Shown here piece after piece: positions 15,955 through 50,197 of a stretch of 64,000 bases of DNA. The notes beneath the pieces are model-generated. The model was not told the DNA's origin, ran no database searches, and saw only the letters and a program-made list of their open reading frames with translations. This DNA comes from Gammaproteobacteria bacterium (lineage in GTDB: Bacteria; Pseudomonadota; Gammaproteobacteria; G965277405): NCBI GenBank assembly GCA_965277405.1, contig OZ255726.1, positions 576,001-640,000 of the forward strand. The letters are read 5' to 3'. The position numbers and the translations under genes are program-made. Positions within the stretch are counted from its first letter, which is position 1; each line of letters opens with the position of its first letter.

Positions 15955-15959
15955 ATTGC

Positions 15960-16430: not shown

Positions 16431-16476
16431 CCCAGCACTGCTAATTTGCTGAAGCTGCGACTGAATCAGAATTTTT

Positions 16477-18972: not shown

Positions 18973-18980
18973 CTAAGGAA

Positions 18981-20788: not shown

Positions 20789-20864
20789 ATATGGTATCCT
20801 AAATATTGCATAGCTTATATTAGCAAGTGTATGTAGTTTATGAAAGGTCTGATTAAGTCCTTAG

Positions 20865-20916
20865 GGAAGCTCTGATTAATTCCATGATGGGCGAGACGTA
20901 GTTAATCAGAGCTTCC
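20865..20916. mobile_element. 52-bp mini-MITE just downstream of the giant gene stop
   Basis: GGAAGCTCTGATTAATTCCATGATGGGCGAGACGTAGTTAATCAGAGCTTCC; preceded by a degenerate TIR at 20842-20860. Confidence 0.88.
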
Positions 20917-20924
20917 TAAACAAG

Positions 20925-23900
20925 CTAATCTTGATGATATTTAATTACTAATTGCCATTGACTAAAGGTGTCATCGTGACTGTCTGCATAGTCAGTATTG
21001 TCATCTGCTACAAAATCACCTGCTGCAAACAAATCCTTCACTGTTATTCTCCAATGACCTTGTATGCTTTCACCAAGAAATGCATGCACAGCTATGGGTT
21101 GCTGATAACCTAGGTTAGCTTGAGTGTGTCCATTTCCTGCAGGATACGCCGGATACGATGTTCCTGCAGGCGATGTTAAAGATATTTCTATGTCTTGCAG
21201 CGCTGTTGTCGTTAGTTTAACAAATAGGTTGAGGTGGTCGATTTTGCCAGTTGCTGCAACGTATAGTTCCTTGCTAACACCATCGCTATTTTTATTCGGT
21301 ACAAGCATGGGTACAAAAGTATGATTTTTGGTAATTGCCTCAATTCTGTCATGGGTAATCAACTGCGAATAGCTCTTCGCCATCGCTAATGCTGCATCTA
21401 CATTGACCAAACCAAAGCCATACCAATCGCTGTAATTAAGACCTGCCGCATTAGTAATCCAACCCCGACTAAATTGATAAGCGCCGCTACCTGGAATATC
21501 TGTAGTCACTGTGTAGTCGGCATCAATTATCGTTGCTGTTTTCGCCAATATATACCGCACATCCCAAATAGTTAATGCTGGATGTTGCGAAAGTAACAAC
21601 GCAACCGCGCCACTGACAATTGCAGCCGCTGCGCGCGTACCGTGGAAAGTATTGGTGTAATTGCATGTTGGATCGTCATGGTGGAATTGGTTTGCTAAAA
21701 CGTTACTTGCTGCATTATCTGCTAACTCATGGTTACTATAACCCCTGCTACAGGAAGTTACATCTGTGGTGAACATTCCAGGTTCTCCAGCTAACATTCC
21801 AGGTTCTCCAGCTGATGGACTACCTTGCTCGCCACCAAAACCACTCACCCAAATAGCCCCGGCTGCAGCATAGCTCGCGCGTTTCCCGAAGGCGTTGACT
21901 GCGCCAACAGTGATGATCGGTAAGATGTCTTCCTTATCAAAACCAGCCAAGCCACAGCTCGTACCTATTACATTCGCTTGGCTGCATGCGTCACCATCAC
22001 CAATATATGAATCGCCTGCAGGTTTAATAAAAATGACTCCTTTGCCGTTTCTGCCATCTTGAATCCTGCGCATGATTATTGCGTTGCTGCCAATTGCTGC
22101 GGTAGCTGGCGTGCCGATGTGATCAAGGCGACTAGCTAGCTGGTCGCCTAAATACACAATATCGGCTTCAACTGCTGGGGAATCAGTGGCACTGGGGTCG
22201 CCATCACCAACACTATATTGTAAATACGTGGCATTGCTATTGACACCAGCAGCCATATTGTTAAAGCCAAGCAATTTGGCTTTGGGTGCGACACCCAAGC
22301 CACCCATACCATTATCTGCCATGGCAATCAAGCCAGCTATTGCTGTACCATGGTCGCCGTCACTACCCCTTGGGCTGGGATCGGTTGTTCCTGTCGCGGC
22401 ATTAGGTTGCATAAATGACCCCGTTGCAAAAGCATATCCTTGCCGAGGATCAATATTGTCAGCTAAATCAGGGTGGGTTATTTGCAAGCCAGTATCAACC
22501 ACGCTCACCAACGTTCCTTGACCGAGGCAGCCATCAGTGCGCCATGCACGTTGTAAGTTTAAATGGATGCTACTATCCATTTTGCTAGCATCCATGCCGG
22601 TGGCAATTTGACCTTGTTGCCTACCATCTAAGTACCATTGATATTTTTCTAATGGATTGCTATCTGGTAACGATACAAGCGTGTCTGTATCACAATTTGA
22701 ATTAACCGCTGTCATAAAAATAGTTGCTGTACTAACGGGGAAGTCCACCACATTAGATACATAACCCGAAACCACATATTCTGCTTTGCTTGCTACTATT
22801 GTTGGTGACCCTTGGATTGCACAGCTGTCGTTTGCCACAACTAGTGTCAAGCCAGCAGGTAGCGGCGGTGCTATGCTGCAACGAACAATTTCAACAGTGT
22901 TGACAAATTGCCATTGCTGCTGATTTTGGTATGTCAACATCGTCTGGGCAATTTTATCATCCATTTGCGGTAGCGCATAGATGGCGGTGATGAGGACGTC
23001 TGCACTGCTATCACCAGCGGAATTTGACCCAGTAATAACGTAGTTGCTAGTTTGTGTTGCACTAACATTGTTGGGACTGCCATCAATTTGGCAGGTGCTG
23101 CGTCCATTGCCACCTACAGCTATATTCAGGGCTAAACCTGGCGGCAGCGGTGGTGTGGGGGTACAACTGGTCACATCACCACCATTGTTCTCAATTATTA
23201 TATGCTGAGGAATTCGATCACTGACTACAAACACCATTGCGGTATTGTTATATAATAATGCTGGTGCTTGATCATTGGCTGTTTGATCGTTGGGTGTTTG
23301 ATCATTGACAGTGATGCTATCGCGTAATGCTATAGACCTTCGCGACCTTGACCTTCGTTGCGGCTCTATTCGTGCACTTCTAGCACTTCGAGCACTCCGT
23401 TGAGGATTTGAAGCATAAGAACGTCCAGAAAACGGATTCTCATATATTTCGATGAGTACCGTTGCGCGACTTTCGCCGCCGCTATTGGACCCTTTTATTG
23501 TATACATTATCTCGTATTCTTGAGGTACCGTTGGAGTTCCTGTTATCTGACACGTTGCTTTACCTAAGAAGGTTGCAACTGCAAGCTGCAAACCACCAGC
23601 TAGCTGTGGTGCAATATCACAACTTATTACATCCCCACCAAAGTTTAAAAAGTTCACAGCTTGTATGGGTATACCTATTATGTAATACTGATCTGCTAAT
23701 CTGCCCAAAATTGGAGGGATATCATAGTTCACCGTGATGCTGATATCTGCGCTGCTAGTGCCGCCGCTATTCGACGCTGTGATTGTATACGTTATCGGGT
23801 CTTCTTGCAGGGTGGTTGGGGTTCCTGTTATCTGGCAACTAGCTCCATCTGGCGTTTTCTTAAGTGTTAAACCATCAGGCCATGCTGCGCTATTATCCCC

Positions 23901-26900
23901 GCCTACTTCGCAACTTGTCACCGCACCGCCTGTGTTGCCAAAATCAACAGCTGCTATCGCTGTGTCTATTGTGTAATGCTGCGGGCTTGGGCTGGCTAGC
24001 TCTGGGATATTATCGTTCACCGTGATGCTGATAGCTGCGCTGCTAGTGCCGCCGCTATTCGTCGCGGTGATGGTATACGTTATCGGTTCTTCTTGCAGGG
24101 TGGTTGGTATTCCTGTTAGCTGACAAGTTGCTGGATCTGCGATGGTGGCAAGCTGCAAACCACCAATTAGCTGTGGCGCAACATCACAGCTGGTTACCGC
24201 ACCGCCTGTGTTGCCAAAATCAACAGCTGCTATCGGCGTGTTGATGGTGTATATCCGCGGGCTTGGATTTACTAGCTCTGGGATATTATCGTTCACCGTG
24301 ATGCTGATATCGGCGCTGCTATCGCCACCGCTGTTCGTCGCTGTGATGGTATACGTTATAGCGTCTTCTTGCAGGGTGGTTGGTATTCCTGTTAGCTGAC
24401 AAGTTGCTGGATCTGCTATGGTGGCAAGCTGCAAACCACCAACTAGCGGCGGTACAACACCACAACTTGTTACCGCACCGCCTGTGTTGCCAAAATCAAC
24501 AGCTGCTATCGCTGTGTCTATTGTGTAATGCTGCGGACTGGGACTTACTAACGCTGGGATATTATCGTTCACCGTGATGCTGATAGCTGCGCTGCTAGTG
24601 CCGCCGCTATTCGTCGCGGTGATGGTATACGTTATCGGTTCTTCTTGCAGTACGGTTGGAGTGCCTGTTAGCTGACAAGTTGCTGGATCTGCTATGGTGG
24701 CAAGCTGCAAACCACCAACTAGCGGCGGTACAACGCCACAGCTGGTTACCGCTCCGCCTGTGTTGCCAAAATCAACAGCTGCTATCGCTGTGTCTATTGT
24801 GTAATGCTGCGGACTGGGACTTACTAACGCTGGGATATTATCATTCACCGTGATGCTGATAGCTGCGCTGCTAGTGCCGCCGCTATTCGACGCTGTGATT
24901 GTATACGTTGCCTCTTCTTCATGCAGTGCGGTTGGGGTTCCTGTTATTTGGCAACTAGCTCCGTCTGGCGTTTTCTTAAGTGTTAAACCATCAGGCCATG
25001 CTGCGCTATTATCCCCGCCTACTTCGCAACTTGTCACCGCACCACCTGTGTTGCCAAAATCAACAGCTGCTATCGCTGTGTTGATGGTGTATATCCGCGG
25101 GCTGGGGGTTGCTAGCGCTGGGATATTATCGTTCACCGTGATGCTGATATCTGCGCTGCTAGTGCCGCCGCTATTCGACGCTGTTATTGTATACGTTGCC
25201 TCTTCTTCATGCAGTGCGGTTGGGGTTCCTGTTATCTGGCAACTAGCTCCGTCTGGCGTTTTCTTAAGTGTTAAACCATCAGGCCATGCTGCGCTATTAT
25301 CCCCGCCTACTTCGCAACTTGTCACCGCACCGCCTGTGTTGCTAAAGTTCACAGTTGGTATCGCTGTGTCTATTGTGTAATGCTGCGGGCTGGGGGTTGC
25401 TAGCGCTGGGATATTATCGTTCACCGTGATGCTGATATCTGCGCTGCTAGTGCCGCCGCTATTCGTCGCGGTGATGGTATACGTTATAGCGTCTTCTTGC
25501 AGTGTGGTTGGTATTCCTGTTAGCTGACAAGTTGCTGGATCTGCTATGGTGGCAAGCTGCAAACCACTAGGTAGCGGTGTTGAAACATCACAGCTTGTTA
25601 CCGCACCGCCTGTGTTGCCAAAATCAACAGCTGCTATCGGCGTGTTGATGGTGTATATCCGCGGGCTTGGATTTACTAGCGCTGGGATATTATCATTCAC
25701 CGTGATGCTGATATCTGCGCTGCTAGTGCCGCCGCTATTCGTCGCTGTTATTGTATACGTTGCCTCTTCTTCATGCAGTGCGGTTGGGGTTCCTGTTATC
25801 TGGCAACTAGCTCCGTCTGTCGTTTTCTTAAGTGTTAAACCATCAGGCCATGCTGCGCTATTATCCCCGCCTACTTCGCAGCTTGTCACCGCACCGCCTG
25901 TGTTGCCAAAATCAACAGCTGCTATCGCTGTGTCTATTGTGTAATGCTGCGGACTGGGACTTACTAACGCTGGGATATTATCATTCACCGTGATGCTGAT
26001 ATCGGCGCTGCTAGTGCCGCCGCTATTCGTCGCTGTTATTGTATACGTTGCCTCTTCTTCATGCAGTGCGGTTGGGGTTCCTGTTATCTGGCAACTAGCT
26101 CCGTCTGGCGTTTTCTTAAGTGTTAAACCATCAGGCCATGCTGCGCTATTATCCCCGCCTACTTCGCAACTTGTCACCGCACCGCCTGTGTTGCTAAAGT
26201 TCACAGTTGGTATCGCTGTGTCTATTGTGTAATGCTGCGGACTGGGACTTACTAACGCTGGGATATTATCGTTCACCGTGATGCTGATATCTGCGCTGCT
26301 AGTGCCGCCGCTATTCGTCGCGGTGATGGTATACGTTATAGCGTCTTCTTGCAGTGTGGTTGGTATTCCTGTTAGCTGACAAGTTGCTGGATCTGCTATG
26401 GTGGCAAGCTGCAAACCACTAGGTAGCGGTGCTGAAACATTACAGCTTGTCACCGCACCGCCTGTGTTGCTAAAATCAACAGCTGCTATCGCTGTGTTGA
26501 TGGTGTATATCCGCGGGCTTGGATTTACTAGCGCTGGGATATTATCATTCACCGTGATGCTGATATCGGCGCTGCTAGTGCCGCCGCTATTCGTCGCGGT
26601 GATGGTATACGTTATCGGATCTTCTTGCAGTACGATTGGAGTGCCTGTTAGCTGACAAGTTGCTGGATCTGCTATGGTGGCAAGCTGCAAACCACCAACT
26701 AGCGGCGGTACAACGCCACAGCTTGTCACCGCACCGCCTGTGTTGCCAAAATCAACAGCTGCTATCGGCGTGTTGATGGTGTATATCCGCGGGCTTGGGG
26801 TTGCTAGCTCTGGGATATTATCGTTCACCGTGATGCTGATATCGGCGCTGCTATCGCCGCCGCTATTCGTCGCTGTTATTGTATACGTTATCGAGTCTTC

Positions 26901-41900: not shown

Positions 41901-44900
41901 ATCAGGCCATGCTGCGCTATTATCCCCGCCTACTTCGCAACTTGTCACCGCACCGCCTGTGTTGCTAAAGTTCACAGTTGGTATCGCTGTGTCTATTGTG
42001 TAATGCTGCGGACTGGGACTTACTAACGCTGGGATATTATCGTTCACCGTGATGCTGATAGCTGCGCGGCTAGTGCCGCCGCTATTCGACGCTGTGATTG
42101 TATACGTTGCCTCTTCTTCATGCAGTGCGGTTGGGGTTCCTGTTATCTGGCAGCTAGCTCCGGCTGTCGTTTTCTTAAGTGTTAAACCATCAGGCCATGC
42201 TGCGCTATTATCCCCGCCTACTTCGCAGCTTGTCACCGCACCACCTGTGTTGCCAAAATCAACAGCTGCTATCGGCGTGTTGATGGTGTATATCCGCGGG
42301 CTTGGATTTACTAGCGCTGGGATATTATCGTTCACCGTGATGCTGATATCTGCGCTGCTAGTGCCGCCGCTATTCGACGCTGTGATTGTATACGTTGCCT
42401 CTTCTTCATGCAGTGCGGTTGGGGTTCCTGTTATTTGGCAACTAGCTCCGTCTGGCGTTTTCTTAAGTGTTAAACCATCAGGCCATGCTGCGCTATTATC
42501 CCCGACTACTTCGCAACTTGTCACCGCACCGCCTGCGTTGCCAAAATCAACAGCTGCTATCGGCGTGTTGATGGTGTATATCCGCGGGCTTGGATTTACT
42601 AGCTCTGGGATATTATCGTTCACCGTGATGCTGATATCTGCGCTGCTAGTGCCGCCGCTATTCGTCGCGGTGATGGTATACGTTATCGGATCTTCTTGCA
42701 GTACGATTGGAGTGCCTGTTAGCTGACAAGTTGCTGGATCTGCTATGGTGGCAAGCTGCAAACCACCAACTAGCGGCGGTACAACACCACAGCTTGTTAC
42801 CGCACCGCCTGCGTTGCCAAAATCAACAGCTGCTATCGGCGTGTTGATGGTGTATATACGCGGGCTTGGATTTGCTAGCGCTGGGATATTATCGTTCACC
42901 GTGATGCTGATATCTGCGCTGCTATCGCCGCCGCTATTCGTCGCGGTGATGGTATACGTTATCGGTTCATCTTGCAGGGCGGTTGGGGTTCCTGTTATCT
43001 GGCAACTAGCTCCGTCTGGCGTTTTTTTAAGTGTTAAACCATCAGGCCATGCTGCGCTATTATCCCCGCCTACTTCGCAACTTGTCACCGCACCGCCTGT
43101 GTTGCCAAAATCAACAGCTGCTATCGCTGTGTCTATTGTGTAATGCTGCGGACTGGGACTTACTAACGCTGGGATATTATCGTTCACCGTGATGCTGATA
43201 TCTGCGCTGCTAGTGCCGCCGCTATTCGTCGCTGTTATTGTATACGTTGTCGCGTCTTCATGCAGTGCGGTTGGGGTTCCTGTTATCTGGCAACTAGCTC
43301 CGTCTGGCGTTTTCTTAAGTGTTAAACCATCAGGCCATGCTGCGCTATTATCCCCGCCTACTTCGCAACTTGTCACCGCACCGCCTGTGTTGCTAAAGTT
43401 CACAGTTGCTATCGCTGTGTCTATTGTGTAATGCTGCGGACTGGGACTTACTAACGCTGGGATATTATCATTCACCGTGATGCTGATATCGGCGCTGCTA
43501 GTGCCGCCGCTATTCGACGCGGTGATTGTATACGTTGCCTCTTCTTCATGCAGTGCGGTTGGGGTTCCTGTTATTTGGCAACTAGCTCCGTCTGGCGTTT
43601 TTTTAAGTGTTAAACCATCAGGCCATGCTGCGCTATTATCCCCGCCTACTTCGCAACTTGTCACCGCACCGCCTGTGTTGCCAAAATCAACAGCTGCTAT
43701 CGCTGTGTCTATTGTGTAATGCTGCGGACTGGGACTTACTAACGCTGGGATATTATCGTTCACCGTGATGCTGATATCTGCGCTGCTAGTGCCGCCGCTA
43801 TTCGTCGCTGTTATTGTATACGTTGTCGCGTCTTCATGCAGTGCGGTTGGGGTTCCTGTTATCTGGCAACTAGCTCCGTCTGGCGTTTTCTTAAGTGTTA
43901 AACCATCAGGCCATGCTGCGCTATTATCCCCGCCTACTTCGCAACTTGTCACCGCACCGCCTGTGTTGCTAAAGTTCACAGTTGCTATCGCTGTGTCTAT
44001 TGTGTAATGCTGCGGGCTGGGGGTTGCTAGCGCTGGGATATTATCGTTCACCGTGATGCTGATATCTGCGCTGCTAGTGCCGCCGCTATTCGACGCTGTG
44101 ATTGTATACGTTGCCTCTTCTTCATGCAGTGCGGTTGGGGTTCCTGTTATTTGGCAACTAGCTCCGTCTGGCGTTTTCTTAAGTGTTAAACCATCAGGCC
44201 ATGCTGCGCTATTATCCCCGACTACTTCGCAACTTGTCACCGCACCGCCTGTGTTGCCAAAATCAACAGCTGCTATCGGCGTGTTGATGGTGTATATCCG
44301 CGGGCTGGGGGTTGCTAGCGCTGGGATATTATCGTTCACCGTGATGCTGATAGCTGCGCTGCTAGTGCCGCCGCTATTCGTCGCTGTTATTGTATACGTT
44401 ATCGGGTCTTCTTGCAGGGTGGTTGGCGTACCTGTTAGCTGACAAGTTGCTGGATCTGCTATGGTGGCAAGCTGCAAACCACCAACTAGCGGCGGTACAA
44501 CGCCACAGCTTGTTACCGCACCGCCTGCGTTGCCAAAATCAACAGCTGCTATCGGCGTGTTGATGGTGTATATCCGCGGGCTTGGATTTACTAGCGCTGG
44601 GATATTATCGTTCACCGTGATGCTGATAGCTGCGCGGCTAGTGCCGCCGCTATTCGTCGCGGTGATGGTATACGTTATCGGATCTTCTTGCAGTACGGTT
44701 GGCGTACCTGTTAGCTGACAAGTTGCTGGATCTGCTATGGTGGCAAGCTGCAAACCACTAGGTAGCGGTGCTGAAACATCACAGCTTGTTACCGCACCGC
44801 CTGTGTTGCCAAAATCAACAGCTGCTATCGCTGTGTTGATGGTGTATATCCGCGGGCTTGGGGTTGCTAGCTCTGGGATATTATCGTTCACCGTGATGCT

Positions 44901-47900
44901 GATAGCTGCGCGGCTAGTGCCGCCGCTATTCGTCGCGGTGATGGTATACGTTATAGCGTCTTCTTGCAGTGTGGTTGGTATTCCTGTTAGCTGACAAGTT
45001 GCTGGATCTGCTATGGTGGCAAGCTGCAAACCACCAACTAGCGGCGGTACAACGCCACAGCTTGTTACATCCCCACCAAGATTGCCAAAATCAACAGCTG
45101 CTATCGGCGTGTTGATGGTGTATATCCGCGGGCTGGGGGTTGCTAGCGCTGGGATATTATCGTTCACCGTGATGCTGATAGCTGCGCTGCTAGTGCCGCC
45201 GCTATTCGTCGCGGTGATGGTATACGTTATAGCGTCTTCTTGCAGTGTGGTTGGTATTCCTGTTAGCTGACAAGTTGCTGGATCTGCTATGGTGGCAAGC
45301 TGCAAACCACCAACTAGCGGTGGTGCAACACCACAGCTTGTTACCGCACCGCCTGTGTTGCCAAAATCAACAGCTGCTATCGGCGTGTTGATGGTGTATA
45401 TCCGCGGGTTTGGGGTTGCTAGCTCTGGGATATTATCGTTCACCGTGATGCTGATAGCTGCGCTGCTAGTGCCGCCGCTATTCGACGCTGTTATTGTATA
45501 CGTTGCCTCTTCTTCATGCAGTGCGGTTGGGGTTCCTGTTATCTGGCAACTAGCTCCGTCTGGCGTTTTCTTAAGTGTTAAACCATCAGGCCATGCTGCG
45601 CTATTATCCCCGCCTACTTCGCAGCTTGTCACCGCACCGCCTGTGTTGCCAAAATCAACAGCTGCTATCGGCGTGTTGATGGTGTATATCCGCGGGCTGG
45701 AGGTTGCTAGCTCTGGGATATTATCGTTCACCGTGATGCTGATATCTGCGCTGCTAGTGCCGCCGCTATTCGACGCTGTGATTGTATACGTTATCGGTTC
45801 TTCTTGCAGGGCGGTTGGCGTACCTGTTAGCTGACAAGTTGCTGGATCTGCTATGGTGGCAAGCTGCAAACCACTAGGTAGCGGTGCTGAAACATCACAG
45901 CTTGTTACCGCACCGCCTGCGTTGCCAAAATCAACAGCTGCTATCGGCGTGTTGATGGTGTATATCCGCGGGCTTGGATTTACTAACTCTGGGATATTAT
46001 CGTTCACCGTGATGCTGATATCTGCGCTGCTAGTGCCGCCGCTATTAGACGCTGTTATTGTATACGTTATAGCGTCTTCTTGCAGGGTGGTTGGTATTCC
46101 TGTTAGCTGACAAGTTGCTGGATCTGCTATGGTGGCAAGCTGCAAACCACCAACTAGCGGCGGTACAACGCCACAGCTTGTTACCGCACCACCTGTGTTG
46201 CCAAAATTCACAGCTGCTATCGCTGTGTTGATGGTGAATGGCTCCAAGATTGGGCTTGCTAACTCAGGGATATTAGCGGTCAATTCTGGACTACCACCGC
46301 TCAACTCTGGAATATCAGTATTCAATTCTGGAGTATCATAATTCAACTCTGGGATATCAGTATTCAATTCTGGGGTATCACTGTTTAATTCTGGGATATC
46401 AGCGATCAGTTCTGGGCTACCACCGCTCAACTCAGGGACATCACCGTTTAATTCTGGGATATCACCGTTCAACTCTGTGATATCACCGTTTAATTCAAGG
46501 ATATCACCGGTCAATTCTGGAATATCACCATTCAACTCTGGGGTATCATCATTCACAGTGATACTTATCGCTGCGCTACTAGCACCGCCGCTGTTGGATG
46601 CTGTCACCGTATGCGTAGTTGTAGCTTGCAACTGCGCTGCTGTTCCTATCATCAAACACGTTGCTGTATCAGCTATGATTGCAACAACAATCTGTAAACC
46701 TTCAGGTAGCTGTGGAGAAACTTCGCAGGTAACCACATCTCCGCCAATATTGCTAAAGTTCACAGCTGGTATCGCTGTGTTTATGGTGAATAGCTGATGG
46801 CTGGGACTTACTAATTCTGGGGTATCATCATTCAATTCTGGAATATGGCCGTTCAACTCTGGGGTATCATCATTCACAGTGATACTTATCTCTGCGTTAC
46901 TAGTGCCGCCGCTGTTGGATGCTGTCACCGTATGCGTAGTTGTAGCTTGCAACTGCGCTGCTGTTCCTATCATCAAACACGTTGCTGTATCAGCTATGAT
47001 TGCAACAACAATCTGTAAACCTTCAGGTAGCTGTGGAGAAACTTCGCAGGTAACCACATCCCCGCCAATATTGCTAAACTTCACAGCTGGTATCGCTGTG
47101 TTTATGGTGAATATCTGACGGCTGGGACTTACTGATTCTGTGGCATCACCATTCAACTCTGGAATATCACTGTTCAAATCTTGGGTATCATCATTCACCG
47201 TGATACTTATCTCTGCGCTGCTAGTGCCGCCGCTATTCGTCGCGGTGATGGTATACGTTATCCCATCTTCTTGCAGGGTGGTTGGCGTACCTGTTATCTG
47301 ACAAGTTGCTGTATCATCTACTATGGTGGCAACTGCCAGCTGCAAACCACCAATTAGCTGTGGAGCAACATCACAGCTTGTCACCGCACCGCCTGCGTTG
47401 CCAAAATCAACAGCTGCTATCGCTGTGTTGATGGTGTATATCCGCGGGCTTGGATTTACTAACTCTGGGATATTATCGTTCACCGTGATGCTGATATCTG
47501 CGCTGCTAGTGCCGCCGCTATTAGACGCTGTTATTGTATACGTTATAGCGTCTTCTTGCAGGGTGGTTGGTATTCCTGTTAGCTGACAAGTTGCTGGATC
47601 TGCTATGGTGGCAAGCTGCAAACCACCAACTAGCGGCGGTACAACGCCACAGCTTGTTACCGCACCGCCTGTGTTGCCAAAATTCACAGCTGCTATCGCT
47701 GTGTTGATGGTGAATGGCTCCAAGATTGGGCTTGCTAACTCAGGGATATTAGCGGTCAATTCTGGACTACCACCGCTCAACTCTGGAATATCAGTATTCA
47801 ATTCTGGGGTATCATAATTCAACTCTGGGATATCAGTATTCAATTCTGGGGTATCACTGTTTAATTCCGGGATATCAGCGATCAGTTCTGGGCTACCACC

Positions 47901-49625
47901 GCTCAACTCAGGGACATCACCGTTTAATTCTGGGATATCACCGTTCAACTCTGTGATATCACCGTTTAATTCAAGGATATCACCGGTCAATTCTGGAATA
48001 TCACCATTCAACTCTGGGGTATCATCATTCACAGTGATACTTATCGCTGCGCTACTAGCACCGCCGCTGTTGGATGCTGTCACCGTATGCGTAGTTGTAG
48101 CTTGCAACTGCGCTGCTGTTCCTATCATCAAACACGTTGCTGTATCAGCTATGATTGCAACAACAATCTGTAAACCTTCAGGTAGCTGTGGAGAAACTTC
48201 GCAGGTAACCACATCCCCGCCAATATTGCTAAACTTCACAGCTGGTATCGCTGTGTTTATGGTGAATAGCTGATGGCTGGGACTTACTAATTCTGGGGTA
48301 TCATCATTCAATTCTGGAATATGGCCGTTCAACTCTGGGGTATCATCATTCACAGTGATACTTATCTCTGCGTTACTAGTGCCGCCGCTATTGGATGCTG
48401 TCACCGTATGCGTAGTTGTAGCTTGCAACTGCGCTGCTGTTCCTATCATCAAACACGTTGCTGTATCAGCTATGATTGCAACAACAATCTGTAAACCTTC
48501 AGGTAGCTGTGGAGAAACTTCGCAGGTATCCACATCCCCGCCAATATTGCTAAAGTTCACAGCTGGTATCGCTGTGTTTATGGTGAATATCTGACGGCTG
48601 GGACTTACTAATTCTGTGGCATCACCATTCAACTCTGGAATATCACTGTTCAAATCTTGGGTATCATCATTCACAGTGATACTTATCGCTGCGCTACTAG
48701 CACCGCCGCTATTGGACGCTGTCACCGTATGCGTAGTTGTAGCTTGCAACTGCGCTGCTGTTCCTATCATCAAACACGTTGCTGTATCAGCTATGATTGC
48801 AACAACAATCTGTAAACCTTCAGGTAGCTGTGGAGAAACTTCGCAGCTAACCACATCCCCGCCAGTATTGCTAAACTTCACAACTGGTATTATTACACCT
48901 TTTATGAAAACTTGCGCTGCAGGACTACTAAGATTTGCTGGCTCTGTTGGAGTAATAACGTCGCTTGATGAGTTATCTTGCTGCCACTCATCTGAATGTA
49001 TTGTTTGTAAAACAGTCGCAGTATTAGAGCCTGTAGCATTTGTCGCAGTTATTGTATAGTTCTTGGCAATTAGTTGTTCTACAGTTGGTGTCCCAATTAT
49101 TTGGCATGAATTGCCGTCATCTGTAACTGCTATCTCAAGCCCGCTCGGCATATCTGGGCTGACGTCACAGCCTGTTAAAAATACTCCACCATCGTTATCA
49201 AATACGGTGTTCTGTACAGGTGAATTTACCTTAAACACTTGCTTTGGTAAATTTTTGAGGTTGGGCTTTAACTGAACATTGATTCTGATCGTTACATCGG
49301 CAACAGAAATACCTAGAGCATTAAACGCAACGATTGTAACTATTTGACCACTGCTATCTGTTGTGGCATCAGGAGTTCCTGATATTTGGCATGTATCATT
49401 TGCTGCTCTTACTTGTAAATTAGCAGGCATATTTGTAGCAGTGCAGAATACAGCTGCGCCACCAATATTAGCAATTTCTAAGGAGGTATCAATGGTAATA
49501 CCCTTTGTATATACGACTTCGCCCGCGTTTGTTAATGCAGGTTTTTCTGTAACAGGATTTATTGAATCATCATTACTACAAGATGTAAGTAGTAACAAAA
49601 AACAAACTGCTATGTGTTTCCACAT
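20925..49625 (-). CDS. Giant 9566-aa predicted lipoprotein: about 92 putative-Ig (He_PIG-like) repeats, polybasic linker, S8 subtilase-like domain (catalytic Ser->Arg) and proprotein convertase P-like domain
   Basis: Uninterrupted ORF. Lipobox LTSC at residue 16. Repeats carry LP.GL...C.ITG.PT....YTITA.NSGG. C-terminal VVDTG, DHGT.IAG, GTRAAA, YGFGLV and G.W...V.D motifs. Confidence 0.9.
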   Translation of the reverse strand: MWKHIAVCFLLLLTSCSNDDSINPVTEKPALTNAGEVVYTKGITIDTSLEIANIGGAAVFCTATNMPANLQVRAANDTCQISGTPDATTDSSGQIVTIVAFNALGISVADVTIRINVQLKPNLKNLPKQVFKVNSPVQNTVFDNDGGVFLTGCDVSPDMPSGLEIAVTDDGNSCQIIGTPTVEQLIAKNYTITATNATGSNTATVLQTIHSDEWQQDNSSSDVITPTEPANLSSPAAQVFIKGVIIPVVKFSNTGGDVVSCEVSPQLPEGLQIVVAIIADTATCLMIGTAAQLQATTTHTVTASNSGGASSAAISITVNDDTQDLNSDIPELNGDATELVSPSRQIFTINTAIPAVNFSNIGGDVDTCEVSPQLPEGLQIVVAIIADTATCLMIGTAAQLQATTTHTVTASNSGGTSNAEISITVNDDTPELNGHIPELNDDTPELVSPSHQLFTINTAIPAVKFSNIGGDVVTCEVSPQLPEGLQIVVAIIADTATCLMIGTAAQLQATTTHTVTASNSGGASSAAISITVNDDTPELNGDIPELTGDILELNGDITELNGDIPELNGDVPELSGGSPELIADIPELNSDTPELNTDIPELNYDTPELNTDIPELSGGSPELTANIPELASPILEPFTINTAIAAVNFGNTGGAVTSCGVVPPLVGGLQLATIADPATCQLTGIPTTLQEDAITYTITASNSGGTSSADISITVNDNIPELVNPSPRIYTINTAIAAVDFGNAGGAVTSCDVAPQLIGGLQLAVATIVDDTATCQITGTPTTLQEDGITYTITATNSGGTSSAEISITVNDDTQDLNSDIPELNGDATESVSPSRQIFTINTAIPAVKFSNIGGDVVTCEVSPQLPEGLQIVVAIIADTATCLMIGTAAQLQATTTHTVTASNSGGTSNAEISITVNDDTPELNGHIPELNDDTPELVSPSHQLFTINTAIPAVNFSNIGGDVVTCEVSPQLPEGLQIVVAIIADTATCLMIGTAAQLQATTTHTVTASNSGGASSAAISITVNDDTPELNGDIPELTGDILELNGDITELNGDIPELNGDVPELSGGSPELIADIPELNSDTPELNTDIPELNYDTPELNTDIPELSGGSPELTANIPELASPILEPFTINTAIAAVNFGNTGGAVTSCGVVPPLVGGLQLATIADPATCQLTGIPTTLQEDAITYTITASNSGGTSSADISITVNDNIPELVNPSPRIYTINTPIAAVDFGNAGGAVTSCDVSAPLPSGLQLATIADPATCQLTGTPTALQEEPITYTITASNSGGTSSADISITVNDNIPELATSSPRIYTINTPIAAVDFGNTGGAVTSCEVGGDNSAAWPDGLTLKKTPDGASCQITGTPTALHEEEATYTITASNSGGTSSAAISITVNDNIPELATPNPRIYTINTPIAAVDFGNTGGAVTSCGVAPPLVGGLQLATIADPATCQLTGIPTTLQEDAITYTITATNSGGTSSAAISITVNDNIPALATPSPRIYTINTPIAAVDFGNLGGDVTSCGVVPPLVGGLQLATIADPATCQLTGIPTTLQEDAITYTITATNSGGTSRAAISITVNDNIPELATPSPRIYTINTAIAAVDFGNTGGAVTSCDVSAPLPSGLQLATIADPATCQLTGTPTVLQEDPITYTITATNSGGTSRAAISITVNDNIPALVNPSPRIYTINTPIAAVDFGNAGGAVTSCGVVPPLVGGLQLATIADPATCQLTGTPTTLQEDPITYTITATNSGGTSSAAISITVNDNIPALATPSPRIYTINTPIAAVDFGNTGGAVTSCEVVGDNSAAWPDGLTLKKTPDGASCQITGTPTALHEEEATYTITASNSGGTSSADISITVNDNIPALATPSPQHYTIDTAIATVNFSNTGGAVTSCEVGGDNSAAWPDGLTLKKTPDGASCQITGTPTALHEDATTYTITATNSGGTSSADISITVNDNIPALVSPSPQHYTIDTAIAAVDFGNTGGAVTSCEVGGDNSAAWPDGLTLKKTPDGASCQITGTPTALHEEEATYTITASNSGGTSSADISITVNDNIPALVSPSPQHYTIDTAIATVNFSNTGGAVTSCEVGGDNSAAWPDGLTLKKTPDGASCQITGTPTALHEDATTYTITATNSGGTSSADISITVNDNIPALVSPSPQHYTIDTAIAAVDFGNTGGAVTSCEVGGDNSAAWPDGLTLKKTPDGASCQITGTPTALQDEPITYTITATNSGGDSSADISITVNDNIPALANPSPRIYTINTPIAAVDFGNAGGAVTSCGVVPPLVGGLQLATIADPATCQLTGTPIVLQEDPITYTITATNSGGTSSADISITVNDNIPELVNPSPRIYTINTPIAAVDFGNAGGAVTSCEVVGDNSAAWPDGLTLKKTPDGASCQITGTPTALHEEEATYTITASNSGGTSSADISITVNDNIPALVNPSPRIYTINTPIAAVDFGNTGGAVTSCEVGGDNSAAWPDGLTLKKTTAGASCQITGTPTALHEEEATYTITASNSGGTSRAAISITVNDNIPALVSPSPQHYTIDTAIPTVNFSNTGGAVTSCEVGGDNSAAWPDGLTLKKTPDGASCQITGTPTALHEEEATYTITASNSGGTSSADISITVNDNIPELATPSPQHYTIDTAIPTVNFSNTGGAVTSCEVGGDNSAAWPDGLTLKKTPDGASCQITGTPTVLHEEEATYTITATNSGGTSSADISITVNDNIPALVSPSPQHYTIDTAIPTVNFSNTGGAVTSCEVGGDNSAAWPDGLTLKKTPDGASCQITGTPTALHEEEATYTITASNSGGTSSAAISITVNDNIPELVSPSPRIYTINTPIAAVDFGNAGGAVTSCDVSAPLPSGLQLATIADPATCQLTGTPTALQEEPITYTITATNSGGTSNAAITITVNDNIPELVNPSPRIYTINTPIAAVDFGNAGGAVTSCDVAPQLIGGLQLAVATIVDDTATCQLTGMPTALQVATTYTVTGFNSGGTSSADISITVNDNIPELVSPSPQHYTIDTAIAAVDFGNAGGAVTSCGVVPPLVGGLQLATIADPATCQLTGTPTVLQEDAITYTITATNSGGTSSADISITVNDNIPELATPSPRIYTINTPIAAVDFGNTGGAVTSCDVSAPLPSGLQLATIADPATCQLTGTPTVLQEDPITYTITATNSGGTSRAAISITVNDNIPALATPSPRIYTINTPIAAVDFGNTGGAVTSCDVSTPLPSDLQLATIADPATCQLTGTPTVLQEEPITYTITATNSGGTSSADISITVNDNIPALVNPSPRIYTINTPIAAVDFGNTGGAVTSCEVVGDNSAAWPDGLTLKKTPDGASCQITGTPTALHEEEATYTITASNSGGTSSADISITVNDNIPALVNPSPRIYTINTPIAAVDFGNTGGAVTSCEVGGDNSAAWPDGLTLKKTTAGASCQITGTPTALHEEEATYTITASNSGGTSRAAISITVNDNIPALVSPSPQHYTIDTAIPTVNFSNTGGAVTSCEVGGDNSAAWPDGLTLKKTPDGASCQITGTPTALHEEEATYTITASNSGGTSSADISITVNDNIPELATPSPQHYTIDTAIPTVNFSNTGGAVTSCEVGGDNSAAWPDGLTLKKTPDGASCQITGTPTALHEEEATYTITATNSGGTSSADISITVNDNIPALVSPSPQHYTIDTAIPTVNFSNTGGAVTSCEVGGDNSAAWPDGLTLKKTPDGASCQITGTPTALHEEEATYTITASNSGGTSSAAISITVNDNIPALVSPSPQHYTIDTAIAAVDFGNTGGAVTSCEVGGDNSAAWPDGLTLKKTTDGASCQITGTPTALHEEEATYTITASNSGGTSSADISITVNDNIPALVNPSPRIYTINTPIAAVDFGNTGGAVTSCGVVPPLVGGLQLATIADPATCQLTGIPTTLQEDAITYTITATNSGGTSSADISITVNDNIPALATPSPRIYTINTPIAAVDFGNAGGAVTSCGVSAPLPSDLQLATIADPATCQLTGTPTVLQEEPITYTITATNSGGDSSADISITVNDNIPALATPSPRIYTINTPIAAVDFGNAGGAVTSCGVVPPLVGGLQLVNIADPATCQLTGIPTTLQEDAITYTITATNSGGTSRAAISITVNDNIPELVSPSPRIYTINTPIAAVDFGNAGGAVTSCEVGGDNSAAWPDGLTLKKTPDGASCQLTGTPTALHEEEATYTITATNSGGTSSADISITVNDNIPELATPSPRIYTINTPIAAVDFGNTGGAVTSCDVAPQLIGGLQLATIADPATCQLTGIPTTLQEDAITYTITATNSGGTSRAAISITVNDNIPALVNPSPRIYTINTPIAAVDFGNTGGAVTSCDVAPQLIGGLQLATIADPATCQLTGIPTTLQEDAITYTITATNSGGTSRAAISITVNDNIPALVNPSPRIYTINTPIAAVDFGNTGGAVTSCGVVPPLVGGLQLVNIADPATCQLTGIPTTLQEEPITYTITATNSGGTSNAAITITVNDNIPELVNPSPRIYTINTPIAAVDFGNTGGAVTSCDVAPQLVGGLQLATVADPATCQLTGIPTALQEEPITYTITATNSGGTSSADISITVNDNIPELVNPSPRIYTINTAIAAVDFGNTGGAVTSCEVGGDNSAAWPDGLTLKKTPDGASCQITGTPTALHEEEATYTITASNSGGTSSAAISITVNDNIPALVSPSPQHYTIDTAIAAVDFGNTGGAVTSCEVGGDNSAAWPDGLTLKKTPDGASCQLTGTPTALHEEEATYTITATNSGGTSSADISITVNDNIPALATPSPRIYTINTPIAAVDFGNTGGAVTSCDVAPQLVGGLQLATVADPATCQLTGIPTALQEEPITYTITATNSGGTSSADISITVNDNIPELVNPSPRIYTINTAIAAVDFGNTGGAVTSCEVGGDNSAAWPDGLTLKKTTDGASCQITGTPTALHEEEATYTITASNSGGTSSADISITVNDNIPALATPSPRIYTINTPIAAVDFGNTGGAVTSCDVSTPLPSGLQLATIADPATCQLTGTPTTLQEDAITYTITATNSGGTSRADISITVNDNIPELVSPSPRIYTINTPIAAVDFGNAGGAVTSCDVSAPLPSGLQLATIADPATCQLTGTPTALQEEPITYTITATNSGGTSNAVITITVNDNIPELVNPSPRIYTINTPIAAVDFGNAGGAVTSCDVAPQLIGGLQLVNIADPATCQLTGIPTTLQEDAITYTITATNSGGTSSAAISITVNDNIPELVSPSPQSFTINTVIPTVDFGNTGGGVTSCDVSTPLPSGLQLATIADPATCQLTGTPTVLQEDPITHTITATNSGGTSNAAITITVNDNIPELVNPSPRIYTINTPIAAVDFGNTGGAVTSCGVVPPLVGGLQLATIADPATCQLTGIPTTLQEEPITYTITATNSGGTSSADISITVNDNIPELVNPSPRIYTINTAIAAVDFGNTGGAVTSCGVVPPLVGGLQLATIADPATCQLTGTPTVLQEEPITYTITATNSGGTSNAAITITVNDNIPALVSPSPQHYTIDTAIAAVDFGNTGGAVTSCEVGGDNSAAWPDGLTLKKTPDGASCQLTGTPTTLQEEPITYTITATNSGGTSSAAISITVNDNIPELATPSPRIYTINTPIAAVDFGNTGGAVTSCDVSTPLPSDLQLATIADPATCQLTGTPTVLQEEPITYTITATNSGGASSAAISITVNDNIPALATPSPRIYTINTAIAAVDFGNAGGAVTSCDVAPQLIGGLQLAVATIVDDTATCQLTGMPTALQEDAITYTITATNSGGTSSAAISITVNDNIPALATPSPRIYTINTAIAAVDFGNAGGAVTSCDVAPQLIGGLQLAVATIVDDTATCQLTGMPTALQEDAITYTITATNSGGTSSADISITVNDNIPALATPSPRIYTINTPIAAVDFGNTGGAVTSCGVVPPLVGGLQLATIADPATCQLTGIPTTLQEDAITYTITATNSGGTSSADISITVNDNIPELATTPSPLIYTINTPIAAVDFGNTGGAVTSCDVSAPLPSGLQLATIADPATCQLTGIPTTLQEEPITYTITATNSGGTSSADISITVNDNIPALVSPSPQHYTIDTAIAAVDFGNTGGAVTSCEVGGDNSAAWPDGLTLKKTPDGASCQITGTPTVLQEDPITYTITATNSGGTSSADISITVNDNIPALATPSPRIYTINTPIAAVDFGNTGGAVTSCEVGGDNSAAWPDGLTLKKTPDGASCQITGTPTALHEEEATYTITASNSGGTSSADISITVNDNIPELATPSPRIYTINTAIAAVDFGNTGGAVTSCEVGGDNSAAWPDGLTLKKTPDGASCQITGTPTALHEEEATYTITASNSGGTSNADISITVNDNIPALVSPSPQHYTIDTAIAAVDFGNTGGAVTSCEVGGDNSAAWPDGLTLKKTPDGASCQITGTPTALHEEEATYTITASNSGGDSSADISITVNDNIPALVSPSPQHYTIDTAIAAVDFGNTGGAVTSCEVGGDNSAAWPDGLTLKKTTDGASCQITGTPTALHEEEATYTITATNSGGTSSADISITVNDNIPALVSPSPQHYTIDTAIAAVDFGNTGGAVTSCEVGGDNSAAWPDGLTLKKTPDGASCQLTGTPTALQEEPITYTITATNSGGTSRAAISITVNDNIPALVNPSPRIYTINTPIAAVDFGNAGGAVTSCDVAPQLIGGLQLATIADPATCQLTGIPTTLQEDPITYTITATNSGGDSSADISITVNDNIPALVNPSPRIYTINTAIAAVDFGNTGGAVTSCGVAPPLVGGLQLATIADPATCQLTGIPTALQEEPITYTITATNSGGTSRAAISITVNDNIPELVNPNPRIYTINTPIAAVDFGNTGGAVTSCGVAPPLVGGLQLATIADPATCQLTGIPTALQEEPITYTITATNSGGTSRAAISITVNDNIPELVNPNPRIYTINTPIAAVDFDNAGGAVTSCDVAPQLIGGLQLATIADPATCQLTGIPTTLQEDAITYTITATNSGGTSSADISITVNDNIPELATPSPQHYTIDTAIAAVDFGNTGGAVTSCEVGGDNSAAWPDGLTLKKTTDGASCQITGTPTALHEEEATYTITATNSGGTSSAAITITVNDNIPALVSPSPQHYTIDTAIAAVDFGNTGGAVTSCEVGGDNSAAWPDGLTLKKTTDGASCQLTGTPTALHEEEATYTITASNSGGTSSADISITVNDNIPELVSPSPQHYTIDTAIPAVNFSNTGGAVTSCEVGGDNSAAWPDGLTLKKTPDGASCQITGTPTALHEDATTYTITATNSGGTSSADISITVNDNIPELVSPSPQHYTIDTAIPTVNFSNTGGAVTSCEVGGDNSAAWPDGLTLKKTPDGASCQITGIPITLQEDPITYTITATNSGGTDIAAISITVNDAQPNLISPPPQLFTINTAIPTVNFVNFGGDVTSCDVSPQLVGDLQLATIADPATCQLTGIPTTLQEDAITYTITATNSGGDSSADISITVNDNIPELVNPSPRIYTINTPIAAVDFGNTGGAVTSCDVAPQLIGGLQLATIADPATCQLTGMPTTLQEDSITYTITATNSGGDSSADISITVNDNIPELATPSPRIYTINTPIAAVDFGNTGGAVTSCGVVPPLVGGLQLATIADPATCQLTGTPIVLQEDPITYTITATNSGGTSSADISITVNDNIPALVNPSPRIYTINTAIAAVDFSNTGGAVTSCNVSAPLPSGLQLATIADPATCQLTGIPTTLQEDAITYTITATNSGGTSSADISITVNDNIPALVSPSPQHYTIDTAIPTVNFSNTGGAVTSCEVGGDNSAAWPDGLTLKKTPDGASCQITGTPTALHEEEATYTITATNSGGTSSADISITVNDNIPALVSPSPQHYTIDTAIAAVDFGNTGGAVTSCEVGGDNSAAWPDGLTLKKTTDGASCQITGTPTALHEEEATYTITATNSGGTSSADISITVNDNIPALVNPSPRIYTINTPIAAVDFGNTGGAVTSCDVSTPLPSGLQLATIADPATCQLTGIPTTLQEDAITYTITATNSGGTSSADISITVNDNIPALATPSPQHYTIDTAIPTVNFSNTGGAVTSCEVGGDNSAAWPDGLTLKKTPDGASCQITGTPTALHEEEATYTITASNSGGTSSADISITVNDNIPALATPSPRIYTINTAIAAVDFGNTGGAVTSCEVGGDNSAAWPDGLTLKKTPDGASCQITGTPTALHEEEATYTITASNSGGTSSAAISITVNDNIPALVSPSPQHYTIDTAIAAVDFGNTGGAVTSCGVVPPLVGGLQLATIADPATCQLTGTPTVLQEEPITYTITATNSGGTSSAAISITVNDNIPALVSPSPQHYTIDTAIAAVDFGNTGGAVTSCGVVPPLVGGLQLATIADPATCQLTGIPTTLQEDAITYTITATNSGGDSSADISITVNDNIPELVNPSPRIYTINTPIAAVDFGNTGGAVTSCDVAPQLIGGLQLATIADPATCQLTGIPTTLQEEPITYTITATNSGGTSSAAISITVNDNIPELASPSPQHYTIDTAIAAVDFGNTGGAVTSCEVGGDNSAAWPDGLTLKKTPDGASCQITGTPTTLQEDPITYTITASNSGGTSSADISITVNYDIPPILGRLADQYYIIGIPIQAVNFLNFGGDVISCDIAPQLAGGLQLAVATFLGKATCQITGTPTVPQEYEIMYTIKGSNSGGESRATVLIEIYENPFSGRSYASNPQRSARSARSARIEPQRRSRSRRSIALRDSITVNDQTPNDQTANDQAPALLYNNTAMVFVVSDRIPQHIIIENNGGDVTSCTPTPPLPPGLALNIAVGGNGRSTCQIDGSPNNVSATQTSNYVITGSNSAGDSSADVLITAIYALPQMDDKIAQTMLTYQNQQQWQFVNTVEIVRCSIAPPLPAGLTLVVANDSCAIQGSPTIVASKAEYVVSGYVSNVVDFPVSTATIFMTAVNSNCDTDTLVSLPDSNPLEKYQWYLDGRQQGQIATGMDASKMDSSIHLNLQRAWRTDGCLGQGTLVSVVDTGLQITHPDLADNIDPRQGYAFATGSFMQPNAATGTTDPSPRGSDGDHGTAIAGLIAMADNGMGGLGVAPKAKLLGFNNMAAGVNSNATYLQYSVGDGDPSATDSPAVEADIVYLGDQLASRLDHIGTPATAAIGSNAIIMRRIQDGRNGKGVIFIKPAGDSYIGDGDACSQANVIGTSCGLAGFDKEDILPIITVGAVNAFGKRASYAAAGAIWVSGFGGEQGSPSAGEPGMLAGEPGMFTTDVTSCSRGYSNHELADNAASNVLANQFHHDDPTCNYTNTFHGTRAAAAIVSGAVALLLSQHPALTIWDVRYILAKTATIIDADYTVTTDIPGSGAYQFSRGWITNAAGLNYSDWYGFGLVNVDAALAMAKSYSQLITHDRIEAITKNHTFVPMLVPNKNSDGVSKELYVAATGKIDHLNLFVKLTTTALQDIEISLTSPAGTSYPAYPAGNGHTQANLGYQQPIAVHAFLGESIQGHWRITVKDLFAAGDFVADDNTDYADSHDDTFSQWQLVIKYHQD
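23734..46260. repeat. Tandem array of about 80 near-identical 276/288-bp units (Ig-like domain coding)
   Basis: Unit boundary GGGATATTATCGTTCACCGTGATG recurs every 276 or 288 bp (occasionally 279, 282 or 285); counted by hand. Confidence 0.95.
46262..46552. repeat. 21-bp (7-aa, IPELNGD-like) minisatellite block, copy A
   Basis: About 14 heptads: TPELNGD IPELTGD ILELNGD ITELNGD... Confidence 0.9.
47738..48028. repeat. 21-bp heptad minisatellite block, copy B
   Basis: Near-identical to copy A at a 1476-bp offset. Confidence 0.9.
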
Positions 49626-50056
49626 TTGTATTTCACGTAAGTTGCTGTTAACGAATCAATCAACTGGCATAAGCACACCGCTGCATTGGCGTTGGCATAA
49701 TTCAAAATTATTAATTTTGACTCTGTTGCAACAGATTAAAATTTTATATATCTATATGTTTTATACAGATATTTTCTATAGATTAAAAGTTTAAATATTA
49801 GTTTAAAGTTGTTTGTTCAGTCAAACAGCTATTCTGACGCGACTATCCTACGAAATGCCCGCCATACCCTACTAACACCACCTACCTTTTTGATTGCACG
49901 CTATTGCTGCCATACATATCACCAACTAATTATTTGCTACTCCTACTCGATGTTGCGTTGTGGAAAACACCATTGCATACGACATTCATTGCCATTCTCT
50001 GCGCATGATATAAAAAATTCATTTGGTGTAATTACAAGTTTCTTCACCAAGTTATT

Positions 50057-50197
50057 CGCAATCGCTGCTGATTGCCAGGCGCATTGGACTGACGCATGCC
50101 GAAGCATATACGCCAAGGAATGCAATACAGCAAGTACCACAACTGCAGTAAACCAAACGTATATTGAACAGAGTGTGGAGAAAACCGCTGCGTTAAC
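50057..50197 (+). mobile_element. Divergent partial MITE (left interior, no TIR)
   Basis: GATTGCCAGGCGCA...GCATGCCGAAGCATATACGCCAAGGAATGCAATACAGCAAGTACC...GCTGCGTTAAC aligns by eye to the MITE interior. Confidence 0.75.

Follow-up and report, generated by a model that had tools for sequence, protein, structure and literature searches.

The DNA analyzed here, referred to below as the window, is a stretch of 64,000 nucleotides from a Gammaproteobacteria bacterium (assembly GCA_965277405.1, contig OZ255726.1, positions 576,001 to 640,000 of the forward strand), and it contains one giant gene, read on the minus strand, at window positions 20925 to 49625. The gene extends over 28.7 kb from an ATG start through 9566 codons to a single terminal stop, whereas the remaining five frames of the same interval hold 123 to 898 stops each; no start codon is found in the 10 open codons upstream of the ATG. 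Its product, of 966 kDa, is extremely acidic (900 Asp and Glu residues against 204 Lys and Arg) and is composed of a lipoprotein-type N-terminus, a stalk of 92 immunoglobulin (Ig)-like domains, and a C-terminal protease-like head that is probably not catalytic. The coordinates of these parts are collected in Table 1.

The N-terminus, MWKHIAVCFLLLLTSC followed by SNDD, combines Lys3, a hydrophobic run, and L-T-S-C16 (read directly as MWK, then HIAVCFLLLL, then TSC16). It passes the lipobox pattern [LVI][ASTVI][GAS]C, which was applied genome-wide in its strict form, and the genome encodes LspA, Lnt, and LolB together with a DsbA-like protein and DsbB. The giant would thus be a Sec-exported protein, with lipid modification predicted at Cys16. 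Behind this cysteine, the +2 residue is Ser, and Asp is found at +4 and +5. At least two acidic residues within +2 to +6 are present in 6 of the 54 pattern-predicted lipoproteins of the genome, four of which are members of the giant's own family, and a further member missed by the lipobox pattern (paralogue C, see below) has at least two as well. As the carriers are paralogues, we regard these residues as a family trait and not as independent evidence of a sorting signal.

The stalk is defined by its cysteines. The protein has 192 in total, namely, C8, C16, and 95 sequential pairs, of which 92 are spaced 18 to 25 residues apart, one per Ig-like unit, and 3 lie in the head. Pfam He_PIG was matched by residues 1 to 1000 (E = 2e-26), by a 401-residue core piece (4e-26), and by the last 967 residues (7e-11), with scores of 92.7 and 91.6 bits against a cutoff of 24; these searches directly covered 2368 of the 9566 residues, the remainder being made of the same 92- and 96-residue units, and gave no match to Cadherin, Big_2, or RTX in the scanned parts. 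Exact 92-residue units with Cys-21-Cys spacing number 40 (39 distinct; mean DNA identity, 91%), those of 96 residues with Cys-25-Cys spacing number 36 (32 distinct; 93%), and the difference between the two forms is a cassette between the two cysteines. The motif NDNxP is found at 79 domain ends, reminiscent of the calcium-binding linker of cadherins (DxNDNxP etc.).

A two-unit AlphaFold model of the stalk is all-beta (pLDDT, 94.5; pTM, 0.81), and in structure comparison it comes closest to titin Ig tandems, to the cadherin-like module of SraP (TMq, 0.61), and to protocadherins. All four Cys columns are invariant in the 54-row alignment of two-domain segments. Because of this invariance, the Sec signal, and the DsbA-like and DsbB genes, it can be proposed that each of the 92 Ig/cadherin-like domains would fold in the periplasm and be stapled there by one disulfide. 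With the length of an Ig domain at ~4 nm, the domains together would form a thin fiber of ~0.35 to 0.4 micrometer. An earlier reading made from the letters alone (the sequence-only reading) had described a single intact ORF of 9566 codons, a lipoprotein-type signal at LTS-C16-SNDD, and an Ig-like rod of "about 92" disulfide-type domains. The open frame with its one stop, the lipobox with the encoded maturation machinery, and the confident model with its tandem Ig/cadherin-like matches all agree with that description, and the Cys-pair units number exactly 92.

The head is one of the points at which this analysis departs from the earlier reading. A Pfam search of the last 967 residues returned Peptidase_S8 (2e-25) and P_proprotein (3e-9), and the last 617 residues matched PDB 3hjr, the Aeromonas sobria serine protease ASP, over query positions 34 to 583 (phmmer E = 4e-54). 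A model of the head built on 40 homologues (pLDDT, 82.6; pTM, 0.90) retrieved 3hjr in Foldseek (TM, 0.77/0.80), followed by furin and Kex2 (TMt, 0.79 to 0.87). By these comparisons the head is classified as kexin/furin-like, with ASP as its closest solved relative. In ASP, the catalytic triad is D78/H115/S336 (PMC5638518). When the two are aligned, HGTRAAAA of the head stands against NGTSSATP of ASP, which places Arg at S336, and PAGDS stands against AAGNG, which places Asp at the oxyanion Asn; at the nucleophile column, at least 90% of the 41 rows of the head alignment have Ser. Among 190 homologues fetched, 44 were dropped for missing columns, and the 146 with all four catalytic columns aligned comprise 140 with D-H-N-S, 3 with D-H-D-R, 2 with D-H-D-S, and 1 with D-H-H-S. 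The D-H-D-R proteins do not represent independent lineages, as they are versions from the organism's own paralogue or from close strains: P0002 shares 99.9% identity with paralogue B, P0003 shares 94.8% with the giant (paralogue A) over a 1358-residue alignment, and P0004 shares 98.3% with paralogue D. This Arg is encoded by CGC in three paralogues (A, B, and C) and by CGA in D.

With the catalytic Ser replaced by Arg and the oxyanion Asn by Asp, the head is probably a pseudo-protease and not an enzyme. The "subtilase head" of the sequence-only reading can be kept as far as the S8 fold and the P-domain are concerned, but not with respect to the catalytic Ser and the oxyanion Asn, which are lost. 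As a consequence of these losses, the head, placed at the far end together with two odd Ig domains, most likely acts as a ligand- or peptide-binding tip rather than as a protease. A subtilase-fold pseudo-protease with a role as ligand sensor is described in PMC9815241 for CspC of C. difficile. Searches with NCBIfam gave nothing above cutoff for the head, the giant's N-terminus, or paralogue E.

Table 1. Features of the giant gene and its upstream region (window positions)
Feature	Position	Strand	Support or remark
Whole ORF	20925..49625	-	9566 codons + stop, 966 kDa
Signal peptide with lipobox, MWKHIAVCFLLLLTSC; Cys16 is the would-be lipidated first residue, followed by SNDD	49578..49625	-	Also in paralogues B, C, D
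N-terminal, more diverged Ig-like domains (residues 17 to ~1210), duplicated block included	45996..49577	-	
Acidic heptad linker (IPELNGD-like), copy 1	47895..47999	-	
Acidic heptad linker, copy 2	46419..46523	-	Peptide identical to copy 1
Core array of 92-residue (Cys-21-Cys) and 96-residue (Cys-25-Cys) units	23526..45995	-	
Sole strongly basic patch, QRSARSARSARIEPQRRSRSRRS, between stalk and head module	23334..23402	-	Possible dibasic cleavage site, speculative
Two diverged Ig-like domains next to head	22701..23258	-	Pfam, Cys pairs
Peptidase_S8-like (kexin/ASP-like) domain	21453..22523	-	Pfam, phmmer, Foldseek
Catalytic Asp, kept (VVDTG)	22494..22496	-	
Catalytic His, kept (DHGT)	22350..22352	-	
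Oxyanion-hole position: Asp (GAT), Asn in family	22011..22013	-	
Nucleophile position: Arg (CGC), Ser336 in ASP	21633..21635	-	
Proprotein-convertase P-domain	21015..21239	-	Pfam
Promoter-like site, TTGACT-18-TAATAT	49795..49824	-	Consensus match only

The giant is one of a family. The genome, assembled as one contig of 2,174,577 bp (98% complete), holds five members, the giants A to D and the small paralogue E, with A being the giant of the window and the only giant copy that is demonstrably intact. Paralogue B (genome positions 10716 to 24470) has A's lipobox N-terminus and is broken by a decayed stretch of ~170 nt; C begins with MWQHIAVSFLLLLTSC and is cut by the contig ends, with ~141 nt of its P-domain missing; D (137497 to 148891) begins with MWKHISFSFLLLLTFCITSC and is shifted in frame by a 7-nt insertion. 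Paralogue E, of 678 residues, has the lipobox ITAC and an intact D-H-N-S set and is predicted to be active. The N-termini are conserved across A to D, and ~230 nt 5' of the giant, promoter-like site included, align with the upstream regions of B, C, and D. All 125 He_PIG matches in the genome lie inside A to D, and the family covers 66,324 nt, or 3.05% of the genome. Paralogues A, B, and C share a nearly identical C-terminal module of ~815 residues (A versus B, 97.6% over 2714 nt, with similarity stopping 12 nt past the stop; A versus C, 99.2%), while their stalks are only ~81 to 88% alike, and this difference points to gene conversion.

Some details of the other copies may be recorded here. 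The contig ends (1 to 10 and 2174326 to 2174577) fall inside the P-domain of C, which means either an imperfectly closed circle or a deletion in C. The junction in B (genome 15345 to 15515) is a run of decayed, frame-breaking repeat sequence, and the insertion in D (at genome ~140793) copies nearby letters; both breaks could reflect true pseudogenes or consensus errors in repeats. Next to E, an exported-looking ORF of 228 residues (genome 1800733 to 1801419, minus strand) overlaps the stop of E by 14 nt, in the place that ORF2 has beside asp in Aeromonas. It was considered as a chaperone of the ASP ORF2 type and set aside, as it had no sequence match in Pfam, NCBIfam, or PDB.

Beyond this genome, the head belongs to a populous family, with 11,697 cluster representatives within an E cutoff of 0.001, of which 516 also pass a cutoff of 1e-30. 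Many of the homologues are proteins of 1100 to 2900 residues with a lipobox, He_PIG or cadherin repeats, and a C-terminal S8 plus P-domain; the strict lipobox is present in 89 of the 190 fetched, and several more are near-misses or have truncated starts. The longest protein in the best 150 representatives has 4495 residues, and none of 3186 candidates of 5261 to 16741 residues carries this head; lengths of 3086 to 5260 are covered only through the 150 best-ranked representatives. Pattern scans of genome contigs and metagenome contigs for head relatives found nothing, and weak matches occur in only 2 of 60 class-level relatives, none of which shares family or genus with this organism. Twelve other giants with a He_PIG stalk (5514 to 7107 residues) were also considered as cases of the same design and rejected: five contain just 10 Cys each, C-terminal membrane anchors occur in several, and a lipobox-like start is present only in P0202. 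Searches of the open-access literature turned up no description of a giant that combines a lipobox, Ig repeats, and a subtilase-like head. The sequence-only reading had named the existence of many well-characterized homologues of this architecture as a point that would count against it; many homologues with lipobox, repeats, and S8/P-domain do exist, but since none of them is characterized, this objection does not apply. The giant is therefore classified here, from these comparisons, as an extreme, catalytically dead offshoot of a common, uncharacterized family of lipoproteins that may be called stalked subtilases.

How such a protein might reach the cell surface was approached through the export machinery that the genome encodes. 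A type II secretion system (T2SS) is split over two loci ~45 kb apart, the first with GspD (including its N0 domain), E, F, G, H, and I (genome 287950 to 295869) and the second with J, K, L, and a weak N (238538 to 243019, within a locus of 237896 to 243019). A prepilin peptidase gene is present, and the presumed GspC and GspM ORFs in the two loci have no Pfam match; judged by gene content, the T2SS is complete. For type I secretion systems (T1SS), no HlyD-type protein (TIGR01843) is matched in the genome, whose single TolC adjoins argS and which has three ABC exporters of 575 to 590 residues. Three full-length Slam genes (PF04575, E = 1e-44 to 2e-43) lie 226 to 730 kb from the giant in cassettes at genome 349602 to 355379, 1364974 to 1372050, and 1373944 to 1380681. 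By Pfam, one cassette consists of a TonB-dependent receptor, an HphA_N/HphA_C hemophore, Slam, and a TPR protein, and the remaining two have equal gene order and near-identical N-termini. Three near-identical hemophore/Slam cassettes suggest heme scavenging and, with it, a host-associated life.

In the window itself, 28 of the 30 flanking ORFs scanned with Pfam have a family and 2 have none, all being housekeeping or unassigned (among them murJ, lnt, accB/accC, an IS5-type transposase, and polyamine- and sugar-type ABC importers), and no part of a T1SS, two-partner secretion (TPS) system, or autotransporter is found among them. This agrees with the sequence-only reading, which had seen neither RTX repeats nor T1SS, TPS, or autotransporter genes in the window, had recommended a genome search for T2SS, Slam, or T1SS, and had left the route to the surface unnamed. 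That search returned a T2SS, three Slams each with its own hemophore, and no HlyD-type partner. It remains the case that no exporter adjoins the giant, but the choice of route can be narrowed. ASP is missing from the supernatants of exeL and prepilin-peptidase mutants, and hence needs the T2SS, according to PMC13492141, and export of the lipoprotein PulA by a T2SS is mentioned in PMC7857515. For these two reasons the T2SS is the leading candidate, to which we would tentatively give a chance of roughly one in three.

When these observations are placed together, about even weight can be put on the proposal that the giant is a lipid-anchored, disulfide-stapled surface fiber with a ligand-binding dead-protease tip. 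The protein would be held at the cell surface by its N-terminal lipid and would serve as an adhesin or capture fiber of a probably host-associated bacterium, having crossed the outer membrane head-first through the T2SS, the route of the head's closest characterized relative.

Several points weigh against this proposal. Among the four giants, B and D are broken and C is interrupted where the contig begins and ends, for which reason the family may be partly decaying. A comparison of the A and D heads gives a dS of 0.18 and a dN/dS of 0.89 (S8 part, 0.73; P-domain, 1.2), which is near-neutral evolution; it could reflect relaxed constraint after the loss of catalysis, neutral drift of the broken D, or diversifying selection on a binding surface. 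The alignment under the two-unit model is made up entirely of repeats from this genome's paralogues, and the length of 92 units rests on one assembly, with Logan contigs breaking inside the repeats. With respect to the route, the Ser at +2 mismatches the Asp+2 retention signal of PulA, and we know of no case in which a T2SS has moved anything so long.

The location claim has a rival of its own, which we consider unlikely, in which the giant stays inside the envelope: Lol would deliver it to the inner face of the outer membrane, or it would remain in the inner membrane, and the fiber would act as an in-plane periplasmic scaffold or spacer. The lipobox with Ser at +2 and the encoded LolB are compatible with such a fate, disulfides suit a periplasmic protein, and no dedicated exporter adjoins any of the five paralogues. 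The sequence-only reading had argued that a rod of this length cannot fit in the periplasm, and this argument has to be given up, as a thin, flexible fiber of 2 to 3 nm need not be upright and could lie in the periplasmic plane, so that periplasm thickness is no bar; for that reason, surface exposure is something that we infer. It is nevertheless favored here because the head's closest characterized relative is an extracellular T2SS substrate and because the acidity, the NDNxP domain ends, and the Ig/cadherin-like rod resemble traits of extracellular adhesins. To our knowledge, which on this point was not extended by a directed search, there is no periplasmic protein of such size.

A second alternative is that the giants are a decaying or functionless repeat family, relics under relaxed selection of which copy A has merely not been hit yet. 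The dead active site, the near-neutral dN/dS of the heads, the disruption of B and D, and the IS5-type transposase in the window could all be read in this way, as could the excess of nonsynonymous over synonymous codon differences among the core units (9738 versus 5418; 5753 versus 4624). We nonetheless judge it improbable. Given the 205 distinct nucleotide variants among the 76 core units, ~4.1 stops would be expected without selection and 0 are seen (P ~0.02, a lower bound), in a frame that stays open over its whole length where the other frames are full of stops. In addition, the Arg at the nucleophile position has been kept through a synonymous change (CGC versus CGA), the promoter and 5' region are conserved in four copies, the family takes up 3.05% of a 2.17-Mb genome, and close versions of A and D occur in other assemblies (P0003 and P0004).

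A slightly smaller chance is given to inflation by assembly, in which the gene is real and its array is substantially shorter than 92 units or differently arranged. Units that are 91 to 93% identical at the DNA level, a junction in paralogue B that resembles poor consensus, the contig ends inside paralogue C with ~141 nt of P-domain missing, and the origin of all locus-bearing runs in one study, which may be the source data, are consistent with it. However, the longest exact internal DNA repeat is 800 to 999 bp, and with none reaching 1000 bp, the array could be resolved by long reads of good accuracy; there are 39 distinct sequences among the 40 a-type units and 32 among the 36 b-type units; and assembly errors would be expected to break, not keep, an open frame of 28.7 kb. 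Contigs of runs X1 and X2 also match the 5' end and its flank without difference, at the flank's depth. The locus was found in three runs (X1 to X3), none of them RNA. One contig of X3 has a joint that skips 1244, from which no reading is drawn, and an estimate of copy number from depth was discarded, as the ratios to assembled copies differ 2- to 16-fold, also at an unrelated upstream repeat.

The basic patch between stalk and head allows a further elaboration of the surface-fiber proposal. The patch is common to paralogues A, B, and C and is not present in D, and as a possible dibasic site it might, speculatively, be cut by the active kexin-like paralogue E. One can then imagine a cleavable, lipid-tethered "fishing line," in which the dead head keeps its cleft and traps dibasic peptides or proteins of host or prey, exit through the T2SS takes place head-first with the 92 disulfide-locked domains after it, and paralogue E cuts the patch (RSARSAR...RRSRSRRS) to free the loaded head. 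This is a long shot; were it true, T2SS and Lol would handle a megadalton lipoprotein, and a protease family would have become a receptor with its own sheddase.

The weakest alternative is that one of the three Slams flips the giant to the surface, which is very improbable: although full-length Slam genes are present in threefold in a 2.17-Mb genome and Slam is an established surface-lipoprotein route (PMC7857515 and PMC5449769), each Slam sits in a receptor/HphA hemophore/TPR cassette of its own (by Pfam for one, by gene order and N-termini for the others), predicted substrates of Slam have an eight-stranded barrel in common and are usually encoded next to their Slam according to PMC5449769, and the giant lacks such a barrel, ends in S8 plus P-domain, and is 226 to 730 kb away.

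The surroundings of the gene show a number of further features. Upstream, a 40-nt near-palindrome (window 49709 to 49748; 22-nt arms, 82% complementary) lies 85 to 120 nt 5' of the start codon; its conservation ahead of the paralogues is only partial, and it may serve as an operator. Rfam gave no match at E up to 0.1 in the 1.9-kb upstream region. In run X2, the contig depth of the intergenic segment at window 49973 to 50274 is 33 to 110 times that of the flank, and the segment has 7 genome matches at 90% identity or more; it probably belongs to the small mobile repeats of this genome. Downstream, accB is on the same strand as the giant, and the gap of 136 nt between them (window 20789 to 20924) has no terminator-like site, so that accBC may be transcribed by read-through from the giant gene. 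The window also holds lnt (842 to 2479, minus strand) and a gene for a TlpA/redoxin-type periplasmic thiol-disulfide protein (6573 to 7118, plus strand), and their sharing of the window with the giant is probably a coincidence.

Should the giant be produced and displayed on the surface, Sec, Dsb, Lol, and an outer-membrane step, for which the T2SS is the candidate, would have to handle a cargo of 966 kDa, stretching the limits of these pathways, whereas Gram-negative giant Ig-repeat adhesins are textbook substrates of type I secretion. The head would offer a natural case of a kexin/furin-type protease turned into a noncatalytic tip with an active paralogue in the same genome, and the share of 3% of a 2.17-Mb genome given to four giants argues for an important role in the life of the organism. 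If the giant is not expressed, it would amount to no more than one extreme case in a class of metagenomic repeat proteins that is common and unstudied.

The resemblance to giant adhesins of Gram-negative bacteria is partial. LapA, SiiE, and MpIBP are said to be long, acidic, Ig-like rods with a ligand-binding part at the distal C-terminal end, as proposed for the giant; they reportedly lack a Sec or lipoprotein signal and have RTX repeats, a C-terminal T1SS signal, and adjoining ABC/MFP genes. The possibility that the giant is itself an RTX adhesin of the T1SS type was rejected, given its lipobox, a C-terminus of S8 and P-domain only, a Cys pair in each domain, and a genome with no HlyD-type gene. 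LigA and LigB of Leptospira are said to resemble it more closely at the N-terminal side, being surface adhesins in which a lipobox is followed by tandem bacterial Ig-like domains; reportedly, though, they have 12 or 13 Big_2 domains, come from a spirochete, and carry no protease-like head, while the giant has no Big_2 match in its scanned parts. Pullulanase PulA, for its part, is reportedly a globular enzyme with Asp at +2, where the giant has Ser at +2 and is a 966-kDa fiber. PulA is nonetheless a lipobox protein that crosses the outer membrane by T2SS with its lipid kept (PMC7857515), and folding in the periplasm followed by such a crossing is what is proposed here for the giant.

The head invites comparison with ASP and CspC. 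ASP (PDB 3HJR and 3WQB) is like the head in having S8 plus P-domain over ~550 residues and is exported through the periplasm, and it needs the T2SS (PMC13492141), which the giant's genome also encodes. ASP, however, is a free, active enzyme of ~600 residues with D78/H115/S336 (PMC5638518), whereas the giant has Arg for Ser and Asp for Asn in an ASP-like domain that makes up the C-terminal 6% of a 92-Ig-domain lipoprotein, and no ORF2-like chaperone is detected by sequence beside the active paralogue E. CspC likewise has a noncatalytic subtilase fold that binds a ligand, as proposed for the head (PMC9815241); unlike the giant, it is a Gram-positive spore germinant sensor, not kexin-like, with neither stalk nor lipid anchor. 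The nearest in layout are the metagenomic lipoproteins annotated as "S8 family serine peptidase" (e.g., P0005 to P0030), which have the giant's order of parts with a head identity of 30 to 36%. They are of 1100 to 2900 residues, keep D-H-N-S (140 of 146), and mostly have a Gly-rich tether after the Cys, whereas the giant is far longer, has D-H-D-R, and has an acidic tether. Giant repeat adhesins and stalked lipoprotein subtilases are thus already known in kind, and what is new here is the predicted lipoprotein/Sec/Dsb design at megadalton scale in a diderm, the probably dead kexin-like tip beside an active paralogue, and the share of the genome devoted to the family.

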